This document shows positions 1 to 45,668 of a stretch of DNA of 45,668 nt, piece by piece (position 1 is the stretch's first letter; every line of letters starts with the position of its first letter). Origin of the DNA: a virus; the IMG/VR virus record IMGVR_UViG_3300015203_000005, positions 1 through 45,668 of that record; one strand, 5' to 3'. Both the position numbers and the translations under genes were made by a program. The notes under the pieces were generated by a model that did not search any database, had not been told where the DNA came from, and saw only the letters and a program-made list of their open reading frames with translations.

Positions 1-99
1 TTTTTACCTAGAGCCGCAGGAAGTATTTATTCTCGAAGATAGCTTTGTACCTAATTTCCAGCGCAATTTTTTATTGCCTCAGTCGCGCCTTGTTGGATT
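1..99. repeat. Terminal overlap identical to 45570-45668 (circular closure or terminal redundancy)
   Basis: tttttacctagagccgcagg...cgccttgttggatt is present at both window ends, 99/99 identical. Confidence 0.95.
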
Positions 100-874
100 G
101 GATATGGCGGTGAGTAATATATGTGCAGCGATGGAGGCTGACAATGTATTGTTAAAGAAGAAAGGGCCGCTCGGTTTTATATCCCATGATGCGGCAGCGA
201 CTAAGGATAGTACGGCTGGTTATATCCCAATGGATGATGAAGAGAAAAAAGATTTACAGGACGATCTTTCGCGTTATGGTATGTCATGGGATCAATTTCA
301 ATTCGTTGTCAGTAAGACGGCAGTGAAGTGGAACCCCATGTCGTTCGATGTAAAACAGCTTGGAACTAAGGAGACAGTATTGGCCGGGGCGAGAGCGATT
401 TGTCAACGTTACGGTTTTCCATTTGTGTTATTTGAAGATAGTGATGCTACGTATGCGAATCAGGAAAGTGCACACAAAAAATTGTACGACGGGAATATTG
501 TACCAAATAATCAACGCGATCTGACAAAGTATAATATGTTTTTCAAAGCGTTGGATAATAATTGTAAGTTGGTGATGGACTTTAGTCACTTGGCTATTTA
601 TCAAGAGGATGAACTTAATGCTGGTCGCGCCCGTGCGTACAATGATCAGGGTTTGCAAATGGAATACCTGAATGATATTATTACTAAGAATCAATGGCTT
701 GAAAAGTTGGGATTGGATATGATCGGGCCAGAAGGGGATAAACTGTATTCACAAAGTGCCGGCAAACTTGCGAATGATAATGTAAAACTTACTCAAATTG
801 CGGCAAAGCCATCAATGAACGGAAATGGAAAGCAAACGCAACCTATTATATCAGATAATATAACTTCAAATTAG
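1..874 (+). CDS. Portal protein, C-terminal part (same ORF as 44992..45668, joined across the circular junction; about 483 aa in total)
   Basis: The frame open at the window end re-enters at base 2 through the 99-bp overlap and stops at 872-874. Lies between large terminase and prohead protease. Size is typical of a portal. Confidence 0.8.
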   Translation, partial: FYLEPQEVFILEDSFVPNFQRNFLLPQSRLVGLDMAVSNICAAMEADNVLLKKKGPLGFISHDAAATKDSTAGYIPMDDEEKKDLQDDLSRYGMSWDQFQFVVSKTAVKWNPMSFDVKQLGTKETVLAGARAICQRYGFPFVLFEDSDATYANQESAHKKLYDGNIVPNNQRDLTKYNMFFKALDNNCKLVMDFSHLAIYQEDELNAGRARAYNDQGLQMEYLNDIITKNQWLEKLGLDMIGPEGDKLYSQSAGKLANDNVKLTQIAAKPSMNGNGKQTQPIISDNITSN

Positions 875-875
875 T

Positions 876-1022
876 ATGGATACACCAAATTCACCAATGA
901 CACCAGATAATACTTTAGGTGGCAGTGCATATTTGCCGAAGCCTAAAGTAGCTAAAGGAGTAACGAAGGCACCCAGGGTGCAGCCAACATTTGCGAAAAA
1001 AGTTTTAAAAGGAAAAAAATGA
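876..1022 (+). CDS. 48-aa protein sharing the NSPMTP-NTLGGSAYLPKP motif with the major capsid protein
   Basis: ATG 2 nt after the portal stop; its stop overlaps the next ATG (ATGA-type coupling). 18/19 aa identical to MCP residues ~194-212, with weaker similarity over ~38 aa. Confidence 0.45.
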   Translation: MDTPNSPMTPDNTLGGSAYLPKPKVAKGVTKAPRVQPTFAKKVLKGKK

Positions 1023-1150
1023 TGGTTACAAAATCAAAAGCGGAACCTGTAGGTAGTCGTACCAAAAGAATATTGGTGCATAATGAAATCGGTAAGGCAG
1101 ATAACAAGAGTTATCAAGAGAAAGTAGCGGAGAGTACAAAGAAAAAGTAA
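1022..1150 (+). CDS. 42-aa lysine-rich hypothetical protein
   Basis: ATG overlaps the preceding TGA. Fills the gap before the protease. Below the ORF-track cutoff, translated by hand. Confidence 0.35.
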   Translation: MVTKSKAEPVGSRTKRILVHNEIGKADNKSYQEKVAESTKKK

Positions 1151-10466: not shown

Positions 10467-12592
10467 ATAAGTCGGTACTTCGTTTTACATTATCTAATAC
10501 AACTTTAGGCATTAAGGTTATAACTGAGCCGATTGGGGCAATGGAAAATCCACTAACGCTTCAGCGAGATTGGACTCTACATTGTATACAAGAAACTTTC
10601 ACGGCCAATTTGACTATGTTTTATGAGGCGATTGATTATTTAGCTGCCGCAATTGCTATAGGTATAGATATAGATGTCAATTTATTGGTAGAAGTATCTA
10701 ATGACTATGCCGTAACGTGGGAACAGTACTATAGTGGGTTGATTGATATGGAAAGTCTTCAACCCATAGCCGATACGCGCGACTACAAAGTGCAAAATGT
10801 AATAAAGCGCAATGATCTTTGGAGTACATTTATTAATCGCAAAGATACCGTTGTGGATGTTAACTCGGCTTTGGACTTGGATGGAAATGCCGTAGCCGCG
10901 CCAATTATACTATCGCCTAATTTACCGACGCAACCGGTTGATAGACAAAGTAGAGTATCTATACATGATTACGCCGATCCAGGTAAAGTATTGCAACTTT
11001 ACTATGTGGATGGAACTATAGATGGGTGGGTACAGGATTTACCATTGGTGGTTTATGATGATTTAAAAACTAAACATAATTTGCCATCTGGGTTATCTAT
11101 TAACGTTACTGAACTTTGGTTAATGACGGTTGAGGAACCTGGTTTGTATGATTTTAATATTGATTTGCTTTTCGCTCGTAATGATGTTGCACCAGGTACT
11201 CCAAAATATAAATTAGATGCCCCCGGATTTGCTGTTACCACGCCTGGGCTATGGTTAAAAAATAGAATGGGTAGTCCTACTCTTGCTATTCCTTTAGTAA
11301 GAACTGATTTAGGAACTGATGGAGTGGACGGCTGTACTCGGTTTAAACTTGTTACGGCAGGCGTTGCGCTAGTAAAAGGAGATACCATTGCTATTGTGTT
11401 TAGACCGGTATTTGCTTCCTATCCGCAAAATATTTATACTGTTTTTGGTGGCGTAGTTATTGATCCGGCTACTGGAGTAACATTTATTAATTCTTTTATA
11501 AGTATTATTGGACATACAACTGGTACTGATTCAGTTGCACAAGGGTACTTACTAAAGGACGTAGCCGGAGCAATTATTAAACGCATAACCGGTAAAGGAT
11601 TATTCAGTAATCTTTTAAACGCAGGCGGCTGCATGTATAACTATTGGTTATGCAAAGGTATACAGATGCGGATACCGTCTTCGTTCGGCCAATATCCATT
11701 CTCCATGTCGTTTAGTGAATTTTTAAACGGCCTTGATCCAATCACCCCGGTAGGCATTGATACATACGTAGATGCTGGAACGGAAAAAATATCCATTGAG
11801 AATGCATCCGAATTTTATGACACTGCCGTATCCATAAACTTAAGTTATGTTAAGGGTATCGTGACTTCGTTTGCAAAAGGAAAGGCAACTAAGTCGGTGA
11901 AAATAGGATATGAAAAATGGCAATTGACGGCCGGCGGTTCGCTTATAGACGATCCTCAGACTCAACATACGTATGCACCACCATTAAAACGCGTAGGACA
12001 AAACATAGTCAAGTTGAGTAAGTGGATAGCTGCGTCATTGTTGTTTGAATTAACAAAGCGGGCTGGAAAACTGAAGCCCAGAGAAACATGGGACTTGGAC
12101 AATGATTTTTTTATACTTCGGCTTAAGGACGATCTTACTGGACCTGATGTAAGTGGAGCGGCTACTAATTTACTGAATCCCACTTTGCGATATAATAAAT
12201 TTTTGACTCCGGCGCGAAATTTTTTGCGTTGGTTAAAATTTTTCAACGTAGGATTAAACCCTCAGTATACAGGGTCTCCATTTCGATTTACTGGCGGGGT
12301 AGGTAATGTACTTTGTGGCGTTACGCTTAATCCGGGGTGCCCTGGTAGCCAGGTCGCGGCTCTTGTTGAAAACGCAGATGTGGCAATAACGAACAGTGTT
12401 GAGTACGGTATTAAGCAAGTTGATTTTATGCATCCGCTTAATTGGGAACAGTACAAGATAATAAAAGCAAACAGGCGAAAAGCCATAGGCGTGAGCCAAA
12501 CCGGGGATAGTTGGGTGCCTTACTTCATTGATAAGATAGACTTTTATTTCTTTAAAAAAATAGCTAAATTTACGCTTCGGGCAACAGTATGA
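10463..12592 (+). CDS. Tail tip protein (distal tail / hub candidate, ~709 aa)
   Basis: ATGA overlap with the tape measure stop. First gene after the tape measure. Confidence 0.6.
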   Translation: MNKSVLRFTLSNTTLGIKVITEPIGAMENPLTLQRDWTLHCIQETFTANLTMFYEAIDYLAAAIAIGIDIDVNLLVEVSNDYAVTWEQYYSGLIDMESLQPIADTRDYKVQNVIKRNDLWSTFINRKDTVVDVNSALDLDGNAVAAPIILSPNLPTQPVDRQSRVSIHDYADPGKVLQLYYVDGTIDGWVQDLPLVVYDDLKTKHNLPSGLSINVTELWLMTVEEPGLYDFNIDLLFARNDVAPGTPKYKLDAPGFAVTTPGLWLKNRMGSPTLAIPLVRTDLGTDGVDGCTRFKLVTAGVALVKGDTIAIVFRPVFASYPQNIYTVFGGVVIDPATGVTFINSFISIIGHTTGTDSVAQGYLLKDVAGAIIKRITGKGLFSNLLNAGGCMYNYWLCKGIQMRIPSSFGQYPFSMSFSEFLNGLDPITPVGIDTYVDAGTEKISIENASEFYDTAVSINLSYVKGIVTSFAKGKATKSVKIGYEKWQLTAGGSLIDDPQTQHTYAPPLKRVGQNIVKLSKWIAASLLFELTKRAGKLKPRETWDLDNDFFILRLKDDLTGPDVSGAATNLLNPTLRYNKFLTPARNFLRWLKFFNVGLNPQYTGSPFRFTGGVGNVLCGVTLNPGCPGSQVAALVENADVAITNSVEYGIKQVDFMHPLNWEQYKIIKANRRKAIGVSQTGDSWVPYFIDKIDFYFFKKIAKFTLRATV

Positions 12593-22126: not shown

Positions 22127-22369
22127 ATGCCTGATTTAATTTATGGATTTCTTGGGATTGTTCTTGCCGGTTGGATGGGGTGGATAAGTATTACCGTGAT
22201 CCACATTTCACATGACACTAAAAAGTCATCCGAACTGAAGGGGTCTTTTGAAAAGATGGAGAAGGATGTGGAGGGATCAATACAAAGGATGGATGACCGA
22301 CTTGATTTATTTCTGAAAACCGAAATCCAGGAACTAAAGTCTGTTCTAAAAAACAAAGACGGTGATTAA
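22127..22369 (+). CDS. 80-aa N-terminal TM + coiled-coil protein
   Basis: LIYGFLGIVLAGWMGWISITVI followed by a charged helical tail. Its 3' end overlaps the start of the receiver-domain gene. Confidence 0.55.
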   Translation: MPDLIYGFLGIVLAGWMGWISITVIHISHDTKKSSELKGSFEKMEKDVEGSIQRMDDRLDLFLKTEIQELKSVLKNKDGD

Positions 22370-22730
22370 GAAAGTTCTAATCGTAGAAGATAATGAGCTT
22401 CAGGCAAAACTACTCAACCTAATGTTACAGGATGAGGGGTTCATAATAGTTGTGGCTTCAGGAGGCGTGGAGGCTTTGAAAATATTGAAAGACGTTAATT
22501 TTGATTTGATCGTATCGGACGTAAACATGCCTGAAATGGATGGTTATTCGTTGGCCAGGAACGTTAAATCGACACTTAAAAAGAGTATCCCGTTTTTGAT
22601 CTACTCGTCAGTCCCGTTGGACAAAGAAGAAATAGAGCTATCAGCCGGGGACATTGATAGGTACATCGTGAAAGCCGGGGTGCAGGGAATCAAAGATGAG
22701 ATAATGCAATATTTAAAATCTAAACATTAA
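22362..22730 (+). CDS. Stand-alone response-regulator receiver (CheY-like REC) domain protein
   Basis: KKVLIVEDNE (acidic pair), LIVSDVNMPEMDG (phospho-acceptor Asp context), LIYSS (Thr/Ser position), IVKAG (Lys position). 122 aa with no output domain. GTG start. Confidence 0.8.
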   Translation: MIKKVLIVEDNELQAKLLNLMLQDEGFIIVVASGGVEALKILKDVNFDLIVSDVNMPEMDGYSLARNVKSTLKKSIPFLIYSSVPLDKEEIELSAGDIDRYIVKAGVQGIKDEIMQYLKSKH

Positions 22731-27756: not shown

Positions 27757-27906
27757 TCAATTCCTACTGAATGAATGGTAATTATCGAACGCGAGCCGCC
27801 ATGTGTTGACGGTTGGAACTACGGCGAACTTGGCGGCCCAAAACACTACCTCACGATCCAAGCCGTCAAGATAGTCAATGGTAATAACCTGTTTATAAGT
27901 TAACAT
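27757..27906 (-). CDS. 49-aa hypothetical protein
   Basis: Hand translated. Start overlaps the stop of the upstream small ORF. Confidence 0.35.
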   Translation of the reverse strand: MLTYKQVITIDYLDGLDREVVFWAAKFAVVPTVNTWRLAFDNYHSFSRN

Positions 27907-28061
27907 AGTTTCTCTTCCTTTATATGTTTACGAATCAAATACCGTATAAGCTGGTTAGCACTTAGGTCTTTTTCCTTTAGCCATTTCTTCACAGCAACTT
28001 CCTCCGCGTGCTCTAGTTGCCAGCCGTGGAACGATATACCGGTTTTGTTAGGTCGTGCCAT
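27900..28061 (-). CDS. 53-aa small DNA-binding-like (RHH-type?) protein
   Basis: MARPNKTGISFHGWQLEHAEEVAVKKWLKEKDLSANQLIRYLIRKHIKEEKLC, hand translated. Confidence 0.4.
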   Translation of the reverse strand: MARPNKTGISFHGWQLEHAEEVAVKKWLKEKDLSANQLIRYLIRKHIKEEKLC

Positions 28062-28063
28062 GC

Positions 28064-28327
28064 TTATAAATCTTTAGGTGACTTTTGTCTTTTTAATTGA
28101 TGCCTGATTCCTTCAAGTGTATAGTACCCGGTACGCCATAGCTTTTTAATTCGTCGCAGCATTGTGCGCTCAGCCGCACTTATGTGCCTGACTCCACCAG
28201 TACCAGCCGTTCCAGAGCCATGCCGCTTAGTGGCATAACCGAAGTAATCGCACCAATACCTTATTACGAATACCTTTAGGCGGCTCTCGCGAGCGATTTC
28301 TTTTAAGGTCCAGTATAGCTTACCCAT
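28064..28327 (-). CDS. MerR-family HTH protein (87 aa)
   Basis: YWTLKEIARESRLKVFVIRYWCDYFG ... RHISAAERTMLRRIKKLWRTGYYTLEGIRHQL follows the MerR HTH plus helix layout. Confidence 0.65.
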   Translation of the reverse strand: MGKLYWTLKEIARESRLKVFVIRYWCDYFGYATKRHGSGTAGTGGVRHISAAERTMLRRIKKLWRTGYYTLEGIRHQLKRQKSPKDL

Positions 28328-28524
28328 TATTCAAAAGAATTTCCTGAGTACTGTAAGCTACCTTTATTCGGCGGGTTACTCACCTGGATACCTTCCTCTC
28401 CTGCATGAATGGAGTACCATCCACCATCAGGGAAAGATATAAGCCACATATCAGAATGTTGTGCGCTGCGGCGAACGGTTCTGTTACCGGAGCGAAAGGC
28501 GATAATTTTTTCTTTTGTTGGCAT
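28327..28524 (-). CDS. 65-aa hypothetical protein
   Basis: ORF track. Confidence 0.5.
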   Translation of the reverse strand: MPTKEKIIAFRSGNRTVRRSAQHSDMWLISFPDGGWYSIHAGEEGIQVSNPPNKGSLQYSGNSFE

Positions 28525-28917
28525 AGTTGTAAATGGTTATAAGTTTGTAGTACACCCAGGACTCGAACCTGGCACCAAAGACTATCTCTAACTTTAGCCG
28601 CTCCACTAGCTTTGTACTTGCCCTCAAGGGTTAAGATGGAAACGCTCCATCAGGGACTCCGTTCTTGCAGCCTACTTACTTTTATCCTGCACGATTTAAG
28701 TAAGTGCTATCCCCCTCTCTACGCCACAACTATTCCCGTGGCCGGTAACTTTAATGTTTAAGCAGGCCGGTGTGGTATCTTGCTCCCCAATACTCATACA
28801 ACTACTGCTGTACTTATCGGTTCATAGCGTTCCCATACTCCGTTTACTTTTCCTACCTGCTACCGCCATCCCAATGCCTCGTCAGGGCACATCGGTGTTC
28901 GGATAGCGCAACGTTCT
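28525..28917 (-). ncRNA. 393-nt ORF-free, hairpin-rich segment ending in tRNA-like element 1 (candidate structured RNA)
   Basis: No minus-strand ORF of 60 aa or more. Hairpins at 28674-28705 (8 bp) and 28635-28651 (6 bp). Lies inside an otherwise tightly packed operon. Confidence 0.4.
28548..28618 (-). tRNA. tRNA-like element 1 (71 nt), anticodon arm not canonical
   Basis: Minus strand: AGTACAA...CCAGG-TTCGAGT-CCTGG-GTGTACT-A. 6/7-bp acceptor stem and a perfect T arm. The middle folds as a 6-bp stem CTAAAG/CTTTGG with an 11-nt loop. Confidence 0.45.
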
Positions 28918-30210
28918 TTACACTTCTAATTTGGCAAAAAACTCCTCTACTTTTTCATTACAGAAAAATTTCGCCGCCGTGAGTTTAGAGGCAAGGGTTA
29001 GACCTTCCAGGCTACGTGCCCGACTAAGCGCCACGTATAGTTGACCTTCGGCGAAGATTTTATTCGCGTCCACATGAACTTTATCAAACGATTGCCCCTG
29101 CGATTTGTGTATGGAAATACTCCAAGCAAGTTTCAATGGTACTTGTTCGATCGCGGCCTTTAATACTTCTACACGTTCACCACCTTGCATTTCCTTTACC
29201 TTATGCTCGCGACGCTTTTTGTAGACTGGAACAATGGGGCCGCCGTCAAGCTGTACGCTTACCACATCATCCTGTAGTTCCACCACTGTGCCAAGCGAAC
29301 CGTTCACAGTTATACCTTTGCCTGCTTTTGCGTTGGGTGGAACGTCAGCATTATTCACGGTTACCATAACTTGTGCGCCGACCTTGAGTGTGAGTGGAAC
29401 CAGGTCTATTTTTTCCGGCCACTTACCATATTCCTTGCACGTGTACGTCTTTGGCTCAGCCTGTATTGCTTTAAGAAACTGCTGATTAATGATTTCCGTT
29501 TCCTTATTGGTTCCAGCCAGCCGGATACGTACGTCCTCTATCTTCGGCTTCACATTTTTGTTTAGTTCCACTAACTGCTTCGGCGTAACTTCGCCGGTGC
29601 GGCAAGAGTGGAGAATGGAAATAAATTTGTTATCTCCCTTTTGCCGCAACACTTCAGTAAGTTCCAATATTTGAAAATCGGCCGCCTCAAAAACTTTGGA
29701 ACTAAACACGAATGGCGAATCATAATGCAGTTTCATCTCCGCTCCATCCCTACCAACCACTGGTGGTAGTTGGTAGAAGTCCCCAACAAGTACCACCTGT
29801 ATGCCACCGAACGGCAGGTCCACCTGTTTGAAGTGACGCAGTTCCCGATCAATATAATCGAACGTATCGGCACGTACCATACTTACCTCATCAATGATAA
29901 GGTACTTAACGCCGTACGTTAGATGTTTGACTATACTATCGAACGTCGTGAACTTGTTAAAGTCAGGGTGGAAAATACCATCACTTACAGGTATACCAAA
30001 CACGGAATGGAGCGTCTTTCCACCTCCGTTTATTGCCGCCAGGCCGGTAGGCGCGCACATCGTCCACGGCTTTTGCGAGTATTCAAGCAGCGCCCGCTCA
30101 AGTACTGTTTTGCCGACGCCCGGTTTTCCGCATATAAGTATGTTGCGCGACGAATTTTCAACTATGTCAAAAATCCGTTGCTGATCGTTTGTTAATGTAT
30201 GTAGTTCCAT
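28918..30210 (-). CDS. Pif1/RecD-like SF1 DNA helicase
   Basis: ILICGKPGVGKT (Walker A), LIIDEVSMV (Walker B), GDFYQLPPV, SIHKSQGQSFDKV, YVALSRARS. Confidence 0.85.
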   Translation of the reverse strand: MELHTLTNDQQRIFDIVENSSRNILICGKPGVGKTVLERALLEYSQKPWTMCAPTGLAAINGGGKTLHSVFGIPVSDGIFHPDFNKFTTFDSIVKHLTYGVKYLIIDEVSMVRADTFDYIDRELRHFKQVDLPFGGIQVVLVGDFYQLPPVVGRDGAEMKLHYDSPFVFSSKVFEAADFQILELTEVLRQKGDNKFISILHSCRTGEVTPKQLVELNKNVKPKIEDVRIRLAGTNKETEIINQQFLKAIQAEPKTYTCKEYGKWPEKIDLVPLTLKVGAQVMVTVNNADVPPNAKAGKGITVNGSLGTVVELQDDVVSVQLDGGPIVPVYKKRREHKVKEMQGGERVEVLKAAIEQVPLKLAWSISIHKSQGQSFDKVHVDANKIFAEGQLYVALSRARSLEGLTLASKLTAAKFFCNEKVEEFFAKLEV

Positions 30211-30223
30211 ATAGATAGTTTTA
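30211..30223 (-). promoter_or_regulatory. Conserved leader 13-mer TAAAACTATCTAT abutting the start codon (copy 1)
   Basis: Plus strand ATAGATAGTTTTA lies directly next to the helicase ATG (30208-30210). Confidence 0.5.
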
Positions 30224-30224
30224 T

Positions 30225-30578
30225 TTATTCAAAATGAATAGTATAACTTTTAAACTCCTGTTGTTGCGTAACCTGGTACGGCCATTTACAATCAAATGGT
30301 ATCTCTATAATTTCAAAAGTGGCTGCAATAAAAAATACCCCCTGAAATCTTTTATACCAACCGCTCGCAAAACTATCGCTTTTAGTATTAAAAGAATCTA
30401 AATGTAGCATACTTATTCCTTCTGGGAGTAACGCATCTAATTCAGGAAAAACCCCTTTACCATTTGTTTCTTTCGCGTTTAAACCGTTAAAGAAATTATT
30501 ATACATGCTGCCATTAACTTCATTTAGTCTACCTAAACTTCTTACATCTCTCATTTTGTTATTGTTAATAGTCTCCAT
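30225..30578 (-). CDS. 117-aa hypothetical protein, visibly AT-rich
   Basis: ORF track. By eye the base composition is clearly more AT-rich than its neighbours. Confidence 0.55.
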   Translation of the reverse strand: METINNNKMRDVRSLGRLNEVNGSMYNNFFNGLNAKETNGKGVFPELDALLPEGISMLHLDSFNTKSDSFASGWYKRFQGVFFIAATFEIIEIPFDCKWPYQVTQQQEFKSYTIHFE

Positions 30579-31532: not shown

Positions 31533-31631
31533 TGGCAGATGGTACTGGATTCGAACCAGTGTACTAAAGGAGCAGCGAACAGTTTAGCCATGTTCTTTTA
31601 CCCCGACCGTAGACCGCTTGGTTAACCATCT
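31533..31631 (-). tRNA. tRNA-like element 2 (99 nt including encoded CCA), type II-like D arm, extended non-canonical anticodon arm
   Basis: AGATGGT/ACCATCT perfect acceptor, ACTGG-TTCGAAT-CCAGT T arm, discriminator G + CCA. D stem ACC/GGT with loop AAGCGGTCTAC. Confidence 0.6.
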
Positions 31632-34562: not shown

Positions 34563-34639
34563 TGGAGAAACTTGGATTCGAACCACATCTCAGGTCGGAG
34601 TCCGGACGCCTGCGCTTTGCCATTAAGCTATGTTTCCCC
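34563..34639 (-). tRNA. tRNA-like element 3 (77 nt) with G3-U70 and A73; possible CCG anticodon loop, but weak anticodon stem
   Basis: GGGGAAA/TTTCTCC acceptor including G3.U70; D stem GCTT/AAGC with loop AATGGCA; TTCGAAT T loop; loop GUCCGGA fits the U33-NNN-R37 pattern. Confidence 0.55.
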
Positions 34640-44995: not shown

Positions 44996-45668
44996 ATGAA
45001 TTTGGGCCAAGTAGTTTCTGGAATAATATGTTCGGAACTATTGGTCAGAGTTCTGGGCTAGGTCGGCTTCCTGCCGATATAGGTTTTATACCTACCGATA
45101 ATAAAGGTACGACAATTCAACTCAAGGGTGAGACGGCGGTATGGTTGGGACTCAATGTTCCAATTCAGCAGAAGTATGCGTATGACTATTGTTTTCCACT
45201 TGCGTCTGTTATTGATCGGTTAGCTGAAAGTGATATTACTGGGCATGTCGAAATACTGCGTGCTACTGGCAAGGGCAAAGAAAATTTTGCAACAAACGAA
45301 TGGGCAATGCTGATGACGAAGCGGTTGCTGCAACCAAATCCACTTCAAACATGGGAGCAATTTCGTGGGCAGCAGGTGGTATATAAAAAAGTATACGGGT
45401 TTTGTCCGGTATTTCCGGTTATACCGGCAGGTTTCGGACCAGAGTTTTGTAGCAGTATGGTAAACCTACCACCCTGGTTGTTTGATGCTGAGCCGACAAA
45501 TGATTGGTTATACAAGACAAAAATAGAGGAGATAGTCAAGCGCTACCGCGTCTCAATACTTGGTAAGATTTTTTACCTAGAGCCGCAGGAAGTATTTATT
45601 CTCGAAGATAGCTTTGTACCTAATTTCCAGCGCAATTTTTTATTGCCTCAGTCGCGCCTTGTTGGATT
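44992..45668 (+). CDS. Portal protein, N-terminal part (continues at base 100 of the window through the circular junction)
   Basis: ATG 44992 is open to the window end. The frame is continuous with ORF 74..874 once the 99-bp overlap is collapsed. Confidence 0.8.
   Translation, partial: MNEFGPSSFWNNMFGTIGQSSGLGRLPADIGFIPTDNKGTTIQLKGETAVWLGLNVPIQQKYAYDYCFPLASVIDRLAESDITGHVEILRATGKGKENFATNEWAMLMTKRLLQPNPLQTWEQFRGQQVVYKKVYGFCPVFPVIPAGFGPEFCSSMVNLPPWLFDAEPTNDWLYKTKIEEIVKRYRVSILGKIFYLEPQEVFILEDSFVPNFQRNFLLPQSRLVG
45570..45668. repeat. Terminal overlap identical to 1-99
   Basis: See the first feature. Confidence 0.95.

Follow-up and report, generated by a model that had tools for sequence, protein, structure and literature searches.

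A non-coding gap behind a phage helicase gene carries a conserved RNA core and a tRNA-shaped RNA

Background

Phage tRNA arrays are usually seen as codon-usage or anti-defence kits made up of tRNAs alone. The closest described systems to the locus reported here include the species 1 and 2 RNAs of phage T4, which mature together with tRNAs, and the C4 RNA of phages P1 and P7, which has a tRNA-like acceptor stem, is matured by RNase P and blocks the ribosome-binding site of its target by means of antisense loops. RNase P recognises stacks of an acceptor stem and a T stem, and at the MALAT1 mascRNA its cut forms the 3' end of the upstream RNA while releasing a small tRNA-like RNA. The structured RNAs GOLLD and ROOL, also considered below, are roughly 600–800 nt in length. 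Here we analyse positions 28525–28917 of IMG/VR virus record IMGVR_UViG_3300015203_000005, a stretch of 45,668 nt which is referred to throughout as the window. This segment forms a gap between a Pif1-like helicase gene and an open reading frame (ORF) of 65 amino acids (aa), both on the minus strand like the genes surrounding them, and contains two RNA modules: an element that we call M1, whose core recurs in other phages, and a tRNA-like unit.

Results

M1 has a core shared with other phages

On the minus strand the segment begins with M1, in which three parts can be recognised:

28909–28917, minus strand: start of M1, AGAACGUUG, directly after the helicase stop codon; CGUUG (28913–28909) is the 5' strand of a pseudoknot
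28862–28908, minus strand: P2 hairpin domain, in which the 7-nt loop CUGACGA (28885–28879; consensus GUSACGA) is the 3' strand of the pseudoknot (alignment A3)
28761–28861, minus strand: M1 core, consisting of P1, purine bulge, P3 and apical hairpin (model R1 and covariation)

In P1 of the window copy AGCAGGU (28861–28855) pairs with GCCUGCU (28767–28761); a 12-nt purine bulge, AGGAAAAGUAAA, occupies 28854–28843, and P3 brings together CGGAGUAUGGG (28842–28832) and CCACACCG (28775–28768), with a variable apical hairpin between the two strands. The core (28861–28761) is the most conserved element of the gap, and had been missed in an earlier note made on this DNA from its letters alone.

Related or motif-bearing loci fetched for comparison carry L-numbers; the more distant relatives were reached through the helicase protein and the contigs encoding it. 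M1 is kept in L005, L009, L010 and L013 (two copies), which together with the window give the six lineage copies of alignment A3. Folding of A3 by RNAalifold returned P1 as the closing stem, P3 stacked on P1, and a pseudoknot CGUNN/GUSACGA, the CGUNN strand of which begins 4–5 nt past the helicase stop codon. Compensatory changes occur in P1, P3 and the pseudoknot. P1 is represented by AGCAGG/CCUGCU, AGUAGG/CCUACU and AAAGGGG/CCCCUUU, and the pseudoknot by CGUGA/UCACG versus CAUCA/UGAUG, its successive pairs over the six copies being CG 6; GC 5, AU 1; UA 6; GC 3, UG 2, CG 1; and AU 5, GU 1. The P2 stem differs in sequence among these copies while its loop stays conserved. This 5' pseudoknot domain was seen in the present lineage, and cores elsewhere were found without it.

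A covariance model built from the six lineage copies (R1), which scores the window core at 129.4 bits with the window copy among its source sequences, identified 60 core copies (51 distinct) in the fetched loci, including contigs fetched by a loose DNA pattern only. The exact 21-nt core motif GGAAAGTAAACGGAGNATGGG is present in 52 IMG/VR contigs, compared to one short contig among the genomes of 185,579 prokaryotic species (one genome per species), and the M1 family is thus almost entirely viral. Two of the carriers are cultured phages in which the core is unannotated: Ralstonia phage RSP15 (NC_030948, about 92110–92188) and Vibrio phage 1.121.O (MG592495, about 140570–140650). The consensus core consists of P1 with 5–7 bp, an invariant 12-nt purine bulge AAGGAAAGUAAA, and a P3 in which CGGAG-N pairs with N'-CACCG and which contains an A-A mismatch. 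P3 is followed by an AU bulge and by GG/CC pairs, while the apical hairpin may be missing altogether or be as long as ~50 nt. Cores measure from 52 nt (L130) to 107 nt, that of L137 being 60 nt, and share ~35 near-invariant nucleotides. The window copy carries the family motif GGUAAGGAAAGUAAACGGAG-N-AUGGG ... GAUACC-N'-CACCGGCC inside a covarying closing stem, its bulge deviating from the consensus at two positions (AGGAAAAG vs AAGGAAAG). At N:N' it has U:A, the counts over the family being AU 24, GC 16, CG 9 and UA 1.

Standard pairs fill 95.2% of the M1 cells, compared to 73.4% in shuffles. The covariation score is 0.332 against 0.091 in shuffles, a value that none of 500 shuffles reached, and is at most 0.057 when pairing partners are slid by 1–3 columns. 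The alignment behind these figures was fitted to R1, and the independent check was a structure-blind MAFFT alignment of 38 cores which, folded afresh, gave the same P1 and P3.

Rfam 15 was searched with all 4227 families, as the earlier note had proposed, and contains no match to the gap, whether in the whole window or in 28400–29050 (651 nt) at E ≤ 10; it likewise yields none for relatives of the gap, nor for M1 cores, those of other phages included, also when a slice of 93 nt is searched at E ≤ 10. No description of M1 was found in the literature by sequence and topic, the 10,006-candidate list of PMC10690425 not having been compared. We rate M1 as a new RNA class, with no counterpart in Rfam 15 or the searched literature, and it is on M1 that novelty rests, the tRNA-like part being a variation on something known. 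A scan with the 3' motif of M1 in the window lineage as an exact pattern gave no hits. Mimicry of, or complementarity to, Escherichia coli 16S, 23S and 5S rRNA was no better for M1 than for shuffled queries. A likeness to the RNase P specificity domain (CAGGUAAGG...GGAGCAAG) was dropped: the second motif is found in the window lineage only, and there is no RNase P match at E ≤ 10.

The near-invariance of M1 across a Ralstonia phage, a Vibrio phage and the present lineage favours either a universal partner, which might belong to the translation machinery or to that of tRNA processing, or a catalytic activity of its own, for example self-cleavage. A specific form of the latter is that the core is a new self-cleaving ribozyme by which polycistronic transcripts, of tRNAs or mRNAs, are severed, and that the tRNA-like unit is a processing signal apart from it. 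About 35 invariant nucleotides on a simple scaffold, a dispensable apical hairpin and a shortest copy of only 52 nt would suit a ribozyme, as would locations in tRNA arrays and in intergenic sites co-oriented with the flanking genes, since phage self-cleaving ribozymes occur in comparable positions, and there is a sub-threshold hammerhead-like match in the related phage L012. However, M1 has no likeness to the ribozyme families of Rfam, and no conserved nucleotide was seen at a putative junction outside P1, so that we consider this form unlikely.

M1 cores lie among tRNA genes on the same strand

A same-strand tRNA is found within 150 nt in 24 of 53 motif-bearing loci but in none of 104 control loci (those matching the loose DNA pattern only), and none of the 53 has solely an opposite-strand tRNA nearby. 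The tRNA arrays of other phages hold the M1 core in the manner of one more gene: it shares the strand of the tRNAs in every case, usually follows the tRNA before it at a distance of about 0–8 nt, and is often placed immediately after tRNA-Leu(UAA). The other copies are flanked by co-oriented protein genes, none of which is a constant neighbour. In the window it is the tRNA-like unit that follows M1, 142 nt downstream on the same strand.

Two side observations concern the surroundings of M1 in other loci. In L017 a group I intron (843–1040, minus strand, 53.6 bits) lies ~170–180 nt downstream of an M1 copy, and a T-arm-like hairpin just past it suggests that the intron splits a tRNA or tRNA-like gene. 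Suppressor-type tRNAs with anticodons tca and cta are predicted in some M1-bearing arrays (L112 13016–13087, L153 34–105 and L158 2275–2350), which hints at stop-codon recoding in those phages.

A tRNA-shaped RNA at the 3' end of the segment

The second module of the gap is a single feature:

28548–28618, minus strand: non-canonical tRNA-like RNA (minimum-energy cloverleaf, covariation in relatives)

Folded alone, its minimum-energy structure is a cloverleaf. The acceptor stem pairs 28618–28612 with 28555–28549 (AGTACAA with GTGTACT, 6 of 7 pairs), the 3-bp D arm (28610–28600) has the loop AGUGG with its G-G, the T arm (28572–28556, CCAGG-TTCGAGT-CCTGG) has a 5-bp stem, and the discriminator is A28548; these arms have the layout of a canonical tRNA, including a T loop of the GTTCRANYC type. 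In place of an anticodon arm there is a 6-bp arm (28597–28575) with an 11-nt loop, UUAGAGAUAGU, which holds GAUAGU. The earlier note had drawn this acceptor, this T arm and the stem CTAAAG/CTTTGG with an 11-nt loop, TTAGAGATAGT, all of which are present as described, and its view that the segment is structured on the minus strand and ends in a tRNA-like acceptor and T arm is borne out by covariation in relatives.

The module is 78% identical to L006 1459–1527, with compensatory changes in the acceptor stem, the T stem and the stem of the enlarged arm. Across nine lineage units (alignment A6) the acceptor and T stems have 95.4% of cells paired compared to 76.0% in shuffles, and 8 of 12 pairs have changed on both sides, although the 5' acceptor strands in A6 were chosen partly by complementarity and only the six units anchored by the GCGGGTT hairpin are independent; the T stems are free of this bias. 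All lineage units start with AGU and end with ACU plus discriminator A (U in one L006 unit). As an exact pattern, the T arm plus acceptor strand of the window has no match in IMG/VR.

We see the unit, as part of the best explanation of the gap, as a tRNA-shaped but non-decoding RNA. The alternative, a decoding tRNA with an expanded anticodon loop acting as a frameshift or stop suppressor beside an unrelated M1, draws on the full cloverleaf with its D-loop G-G and canonical GGUUCGAGUCC T arm, on the assignment of tRNA-Ser(aga) by ARAGORN relaxed to 80%, and on two further odd tRNA-like genes in the same phage (34637–34563 and 31631–31533). Against this, a 7-nt anticodon loop with a fixed frame is lacking: the loop measures 11 nt in the window, 13 in L006 and 9 in L009, and only GAUAGU, which defines no anticodon frame, is conserved. 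The same loop motif also occurs on plain hairpins, the ARAGORN identities of the lineage units are inconsistent (Ser, Pro, Leu), ARAGORN at default settings finds no gene in the gap, and the Rfam tRNA family RF00005 (threshold 29 bits) has no match at E ≤ 10 on either 651 nt or 86 nt. A decoding role thus appears improbable.

The two other genes deserve description in their own right. That at 31533–31631 (minus strand) is tRNA-like, ~97 nt long and conserved; its acceptor is AGAUGGU/ACCAUCU, its T arm is canonical, the discriminator is G and a CCA is encoded. It is also present in L001 (2957–3051), L014 (9895–9989) and L007 (about 1635–1725), and L001 and L014 read GCUA at the CCA site. ARAGORN misses it unless introns are allowed, and then names it tRNA-Ala(cgc), with an insert of 21 nt; in relatives it is preceded by a hairpin with loop UUUGAUAGU. 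The gene at 34563–34637 (minus strand), the third non-canonical tRNA-like gene of this phage, is a tRNA barely at the Rfam threshold (29.5 vs 29 bits), has an anticodon region 5 nt too long and is missed by ARAGORN defaults.

The GAUAGU loop is complementary to early-gene starts

GAUAGU is the reverse complement of ACUAUC, a motif that recurs just before start codons in the window:

30214–30219, minus strand: ACUAUC, 3 nt upstream of the helicase AUG, candidate antisense target
31521–31516 and 32694–32689, minus strand: further ACUAUC start motifs, candidate antisense targets

In related loci (L001, L007, L011, L014, L005 and L013) the form (T/A)AAAACTATC followed by ATG within 0–5 nt occurs at 2–5 early genes per locus, and every related locus that covers this early-gene region has (U/A)AAAACUAUC 0–5 nt before AUG. 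The plain hairpins that bear the GAUAGU loop without a tRNA body are found in L001, L007, L011 and L014. A seventh position changes together on both sides, the window having A-GAUAGU/ACUAUC-U at all three starts where other loci have U-GAUAGU/ACUAUC-A. Judged from these sequences, the complementarity suggests antisense control of early genes.

Modules of the gap are gained, lost and reshuffled

Between the two modules lies a stretch with a different history:

28619–28760, minus strand: lineage-specific spacer with three predicted hairpins, including 28674–28705 and 28635–28651 (folding only)

No homolog of the spacer was found in any fetched locus by blastn or nhmmer. The closest relative, L001/L002 (helicase 86% identical), lacks the whole gap, and there is an overlap between its helicase gene and its 65-aa ORF homolog. 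More distant relatives have non-coding stretches at this place that resemble the window in part; in L005 and L009 the similarity covers the first ~165 nt of the gap. M1 occurs without a tRNA-like unit of the window type in L005, L010 and L013, the unit occurs without M1 in L006, and neither is found in L001. These differing combinations indicate that the gap is a cassette that has been gained, lost and reshuffled among close relatives. There is no sign of a mobile element, in that neither the window nor L001 has a further copy of the segment and no target duplication could be seen by eye at the boundary between L001 and the window.

This bears on the interpretation in the earlier note, which had proposed one large RNA with a tRNA-like 3' domain. 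The observation itself is confirmed, while that interpretation is partly supported. A single ~390-nt structured RNA, in which M1, spacer and tRNA-like end fold and act together in the manner of ornate RNAs or tmRNA, would be in keeping with three parts that adjoin one another on the same strand and are not separated by any terminator-like site, and with L009, where M1, a long spacer and tRNA-like units follow in the same order. However, the modules are separable: the unit occurs without M1 in L006, M1 without the unit in L010 and L013, and the M1 core by itself in dozens of phages. Conservation is lacking in the spacer, long-range pairs linking one module to another were not found, and the folding energy of the whole segment is unexceptional (z = -0.39). 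Given that M1 and the tRNA-like unit occur independently in relatives, we give a single RNA little credence. The hairpins at 28674–28705 and 28635–28651, described in the same note, are indeed present, and belong to the only part of the segment without conservation; conservation with covariation holds for both ends of the gap, and the middle has no homolog. A second AGTACAG, which had been put forward as an alternative acceptor strand, lies at 28814–28808, 2 nt from the position first given, and is not credible in that role because it is inside the window-specific apical hairpin of M1.

Some tRNA-like units of the lineage are preceded by a conserved hairpin, GGACGCCCGAUUAAUGCGGGUU, which is absent from the window. 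A 21-mer hairpin, GCCCGATTAATGCGGGTTAGT, with a palindromic ATTAAT centre, is exactly conserved directly 5' of tRNA-like units in relatives and absent from the window; this motif (M2) is present in one IMG/VR contig and no GTDB genome. Its sites are:

L005 4500–4522, L006 1546–1568, L007 4494–4516, L009 1732–1754, L011 1840–1862, L013 2733–2755 and L014 10988–11014: 21-mer hairpin

In L014 only about 30 codons of the helicase gene are left (10793–10890), with the downstream tRNA-like unit and hairpin retained. L012 carries at 36–91 a sequence resembling a type I hammerhead, with an intact CUGAUGA...GAAAC core and a score of 26.2 bits (gathering score 34).

Coding capacity, folding energy and genome setting of the gap

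A 99-nt direct repeat at the termini of the window (1–99 = 45570–45668) indicates a circularly closed contig and hence a complete phage genome of ~45.6 kb. The features flanking the modules are:

28918–30210, minus strand: Pif1-like helicase, upstream of the gap, with its stop codon abutting M1 (Pfam PIF1/AAA_30/UvrD_C_2, precomputed for the 100%-identical P0001)
28525–28547, minus strand: trailer of 23 nt, CAAACUUAUAACCAUUUACAACU, separating the tRNA-like unit from the start codon (AUG) of the 65-aa ORF
28327–28524, minus strand: conserved 65-aa ORF, downstream of the gap (ORF list; homolog in L001)

The 65-aa ORF has no Pfam or PHROG match, and found no relatives when used as an exact pattern. 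Beyond it comes a MerR-like gene, and the gap lies within the replication module. A metagenome scan with the helicase recovered only the relative already found, one truncated contig and one distant contig. As far as they were read, gene starts of this lineage have no Shine-Dalgarno sequence, which suggests a Bacteroidota-like host. Elsewhere in the window, 22362–22730 (plus strand) encodes a protein that is a response-regulator receiver domain standing on its own (Pfam Response_reg, 68.3 bits).

The gap is non-coding. Only two minus-strand ORFs touch it, one of 33 aa (28696–28797) and a TTG-initiated one of 47 aa (28484–28627), in line with the earlier statement that it holds no sizeable ORF on this strand, and plus-strand ORFs of 49–70 aa overlap it. 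PHROG families were searched with the gap ORFs of either strand and gave no match, so that a conserved short protein gene filling the gap was looked for and none was found; since, in addition, core lengths vary by non-multiples of three, a protein-coding M1 is rejected. A promoter-like match lies at 28533–28505 (minus strand), such matches being no commoner in the region than in shuffles. Folding energies compared to shuffles are z = -0.39 (minus) and -0.99 (plus) for the whole segment, -1.26 for the tRNA-like module and -1.39 for the spacer. By thermodynamics alone the segment is no more structured than expected by chance; it is the comparative data that support the predicted structure, at both ends of the segment and not in the middle.

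The setting also bears on whether the gap acts as DNA, as an attachment site with a host tRNA fragment, a replication origin, or a set of operators in which GATAGT/ACTATC and CCCGATTAATGCGGG bind protein. The location in the replication module beside a MerR-like gene would fit such an element, as would the fact that GATAGT, being the reverse complement of the ACTATC start motif, could be one motif in two orientations, and the presence of the segment as an insertion/deletion polymorphism relative to L001. However, a Pfam scan of 40 window proteins found no integrase or recombinase (nor any reverse transcriptase, Ro/Rsr (TROVE) or RNA ligase domain), the cloverleaf is complete rather than a 3' tRNA fragment, and the window contains no iterons or extra copies. 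Furthermore, pairing has been preserved through sequence change, with each of the four Watson-Crick types seen in P1 and with the N:N' exchanges of P3, which implies selection on a folded single strand and not on duplex DNA, and we regard a DNA-level element as very improbable.

Discussion

Proposed working of the cassette

On balance we think it probable that small non-coding RNA genes make up the gap as a cassette which is cotranscribed with the early/replication operon, cut by tRNA-processing enzymes, and active in antisense through GAUAGU. Transcription would proceed with the helicase operon on the gene strand, a step proposed because no terminator-like site was found within 27800–30400. 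Host enzymes would then recognise the acceptor/T-arm stack, RNase P on the 5' side and RNase Z or exonucleases on the 3' side, and their cuts would part the helicase–M1 RNA from the downstream mRNA and free a tRNA-like RNA of ~71 nt; processing might also occur at the P1/P3 stack of M1, as a mimic of an acceptor/T-stem minihelix. The GAUAGU loop of the freed RNA could pair with ACUAUC at early-gene starts, that of the helicase included, in the manner of C4. Ribosomes terminating at the helicase stop codon would be expected to unfold the M1 pseudoknot.

Several points weigh against this proposal. Co-transcription and processing are steps that we infer. The complementarity between loop and gene starts amounts to only 7 contiguous pairs, was noticed post hoc, depends on one compensatory event between lineages, and is explained equally well by one DNA motif in both orientations; moreover L006 and L009 have GAUAGU loops but no ACTATC start motif in the readable part of the contig. 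One A-G mismatch interrupts the acceptor stem, the tail reads ACA with no encoded 3' CCA, and the folding energies of the whole segment, tRNA-like module and spacer are not different from those of shuffles. About half of the M1 copies have no nearby tRNA, which shows that tRNA neighbours are not strictly needed.

More tentatively, the M1 core may constitute a new functional class in tRNA-array biology: either a self-cleaving ribozyme, or a tRNA-sized decoy or ligand of a universal bacterial factor, for which RNase P, translation factors and defence nucleases that target tRNAs are candidates. The core would, in the present lineage, be fused to a translation-sensitive pseudoknot and be accompanied by antisense RNAs of tRNA shape through which early genes are shut off. 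Its gene-like presence in tRNA arrays of many uncultured and two cultured phages implies an unrecognised part of phage tRNA biology. The function of M1 is open to direct testing, as both cultured carriers, RSP15 and 1.121.O, can be propagated. The window lineage adds two leads of its own, namely an M1 placed at a stop codon behind a pseudoknot, and tRNA-shaped RNAs with enlarged loops as a possible new route of early-gene shut-off.

Comparison with known systems

The acceptor and T arm joined to a non-tRNA structure recall tmRNA, but this was rejected together with a group I intron-containing tRNA, in agreement with the earlier note, which had been unable to fit the gap to either. The unit has U3:A70 and not G3:U70 (A1-U72, G2-C71 and U3-A70 are found in 9 of 9 lineage units, with tails ACA, ACU or UCA), there is neither a tag frame nor a CCA, and neither ARAGORN in tmRNA mode nor Rfam calls a tmRNA in the gap. 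At a relaxed threshold a 'permuted tmRNA' was called in L009 only, with its reading frame inside M1 and a tag end other than the ...LAA typical of tmRNA tags. Separately, a phage tmRNA with tag ANDNVEFDYALAA is present in L177 (about 1330–1660) and L176. It shares with the window unit the 12-mer GAUAGUCUUUGG just 5' of the T arm, which is not evidence of homology because about one such match is expected by chance. As for the intron, Intron_gpI has no match in 28400–29050 at E ≤ 10, while the intron of L017 was found as a positive control.

YrlA is likewise a modular RNA with a tRNA-like T-arm module, and matches at 11.2 bits (gathering score 69); it differs in that the termini of the window unit lie in the acceptor stem, and in that the 40 scanned proteins include no Ro/Rsr. 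As with mascRNA, a longer structured RNA is followed on its 3' side by a tRNA-like structure, the T arm of which gives an 11.4-bit match to that family, but this covers the T hairpin only and is far below the gathering score of 42.5, so that with a eukaryotic RNA the likeness is one of mechanism and not of membership. The resemblance to C4 lies in a loop complementary to ACUAUC at early-gene starts; the window unit differs in having full T and D arms and several early-gene targets rather than one antirepressor operon, and the Rfam model of C4 has no match in either the gap (651 nt) or the tRNA-like unit (86 nt).

GOLLD and ROOL are phage-associated structured RNAs often found near tRNA genes (PMC12286853), from which the present locus differs in that the gap has no Rfam match and the M1 core is 52–107 nt long. 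The rnaC and rnaD genes of T4 offer the nearest parallel in placement, as they encode small stable RNAs within a phage tRNA cluster, where the M1 core is likewise situated in other phages. They differ in having no relation in sequence or structure to M1, and the identification of M1 with them was rejected, since R1 has no match there and its best match in T4 (9.3 bits) lies elsewhere; the M1 of the window, moreover, is located in a helicase operon and not in a tRNA array.

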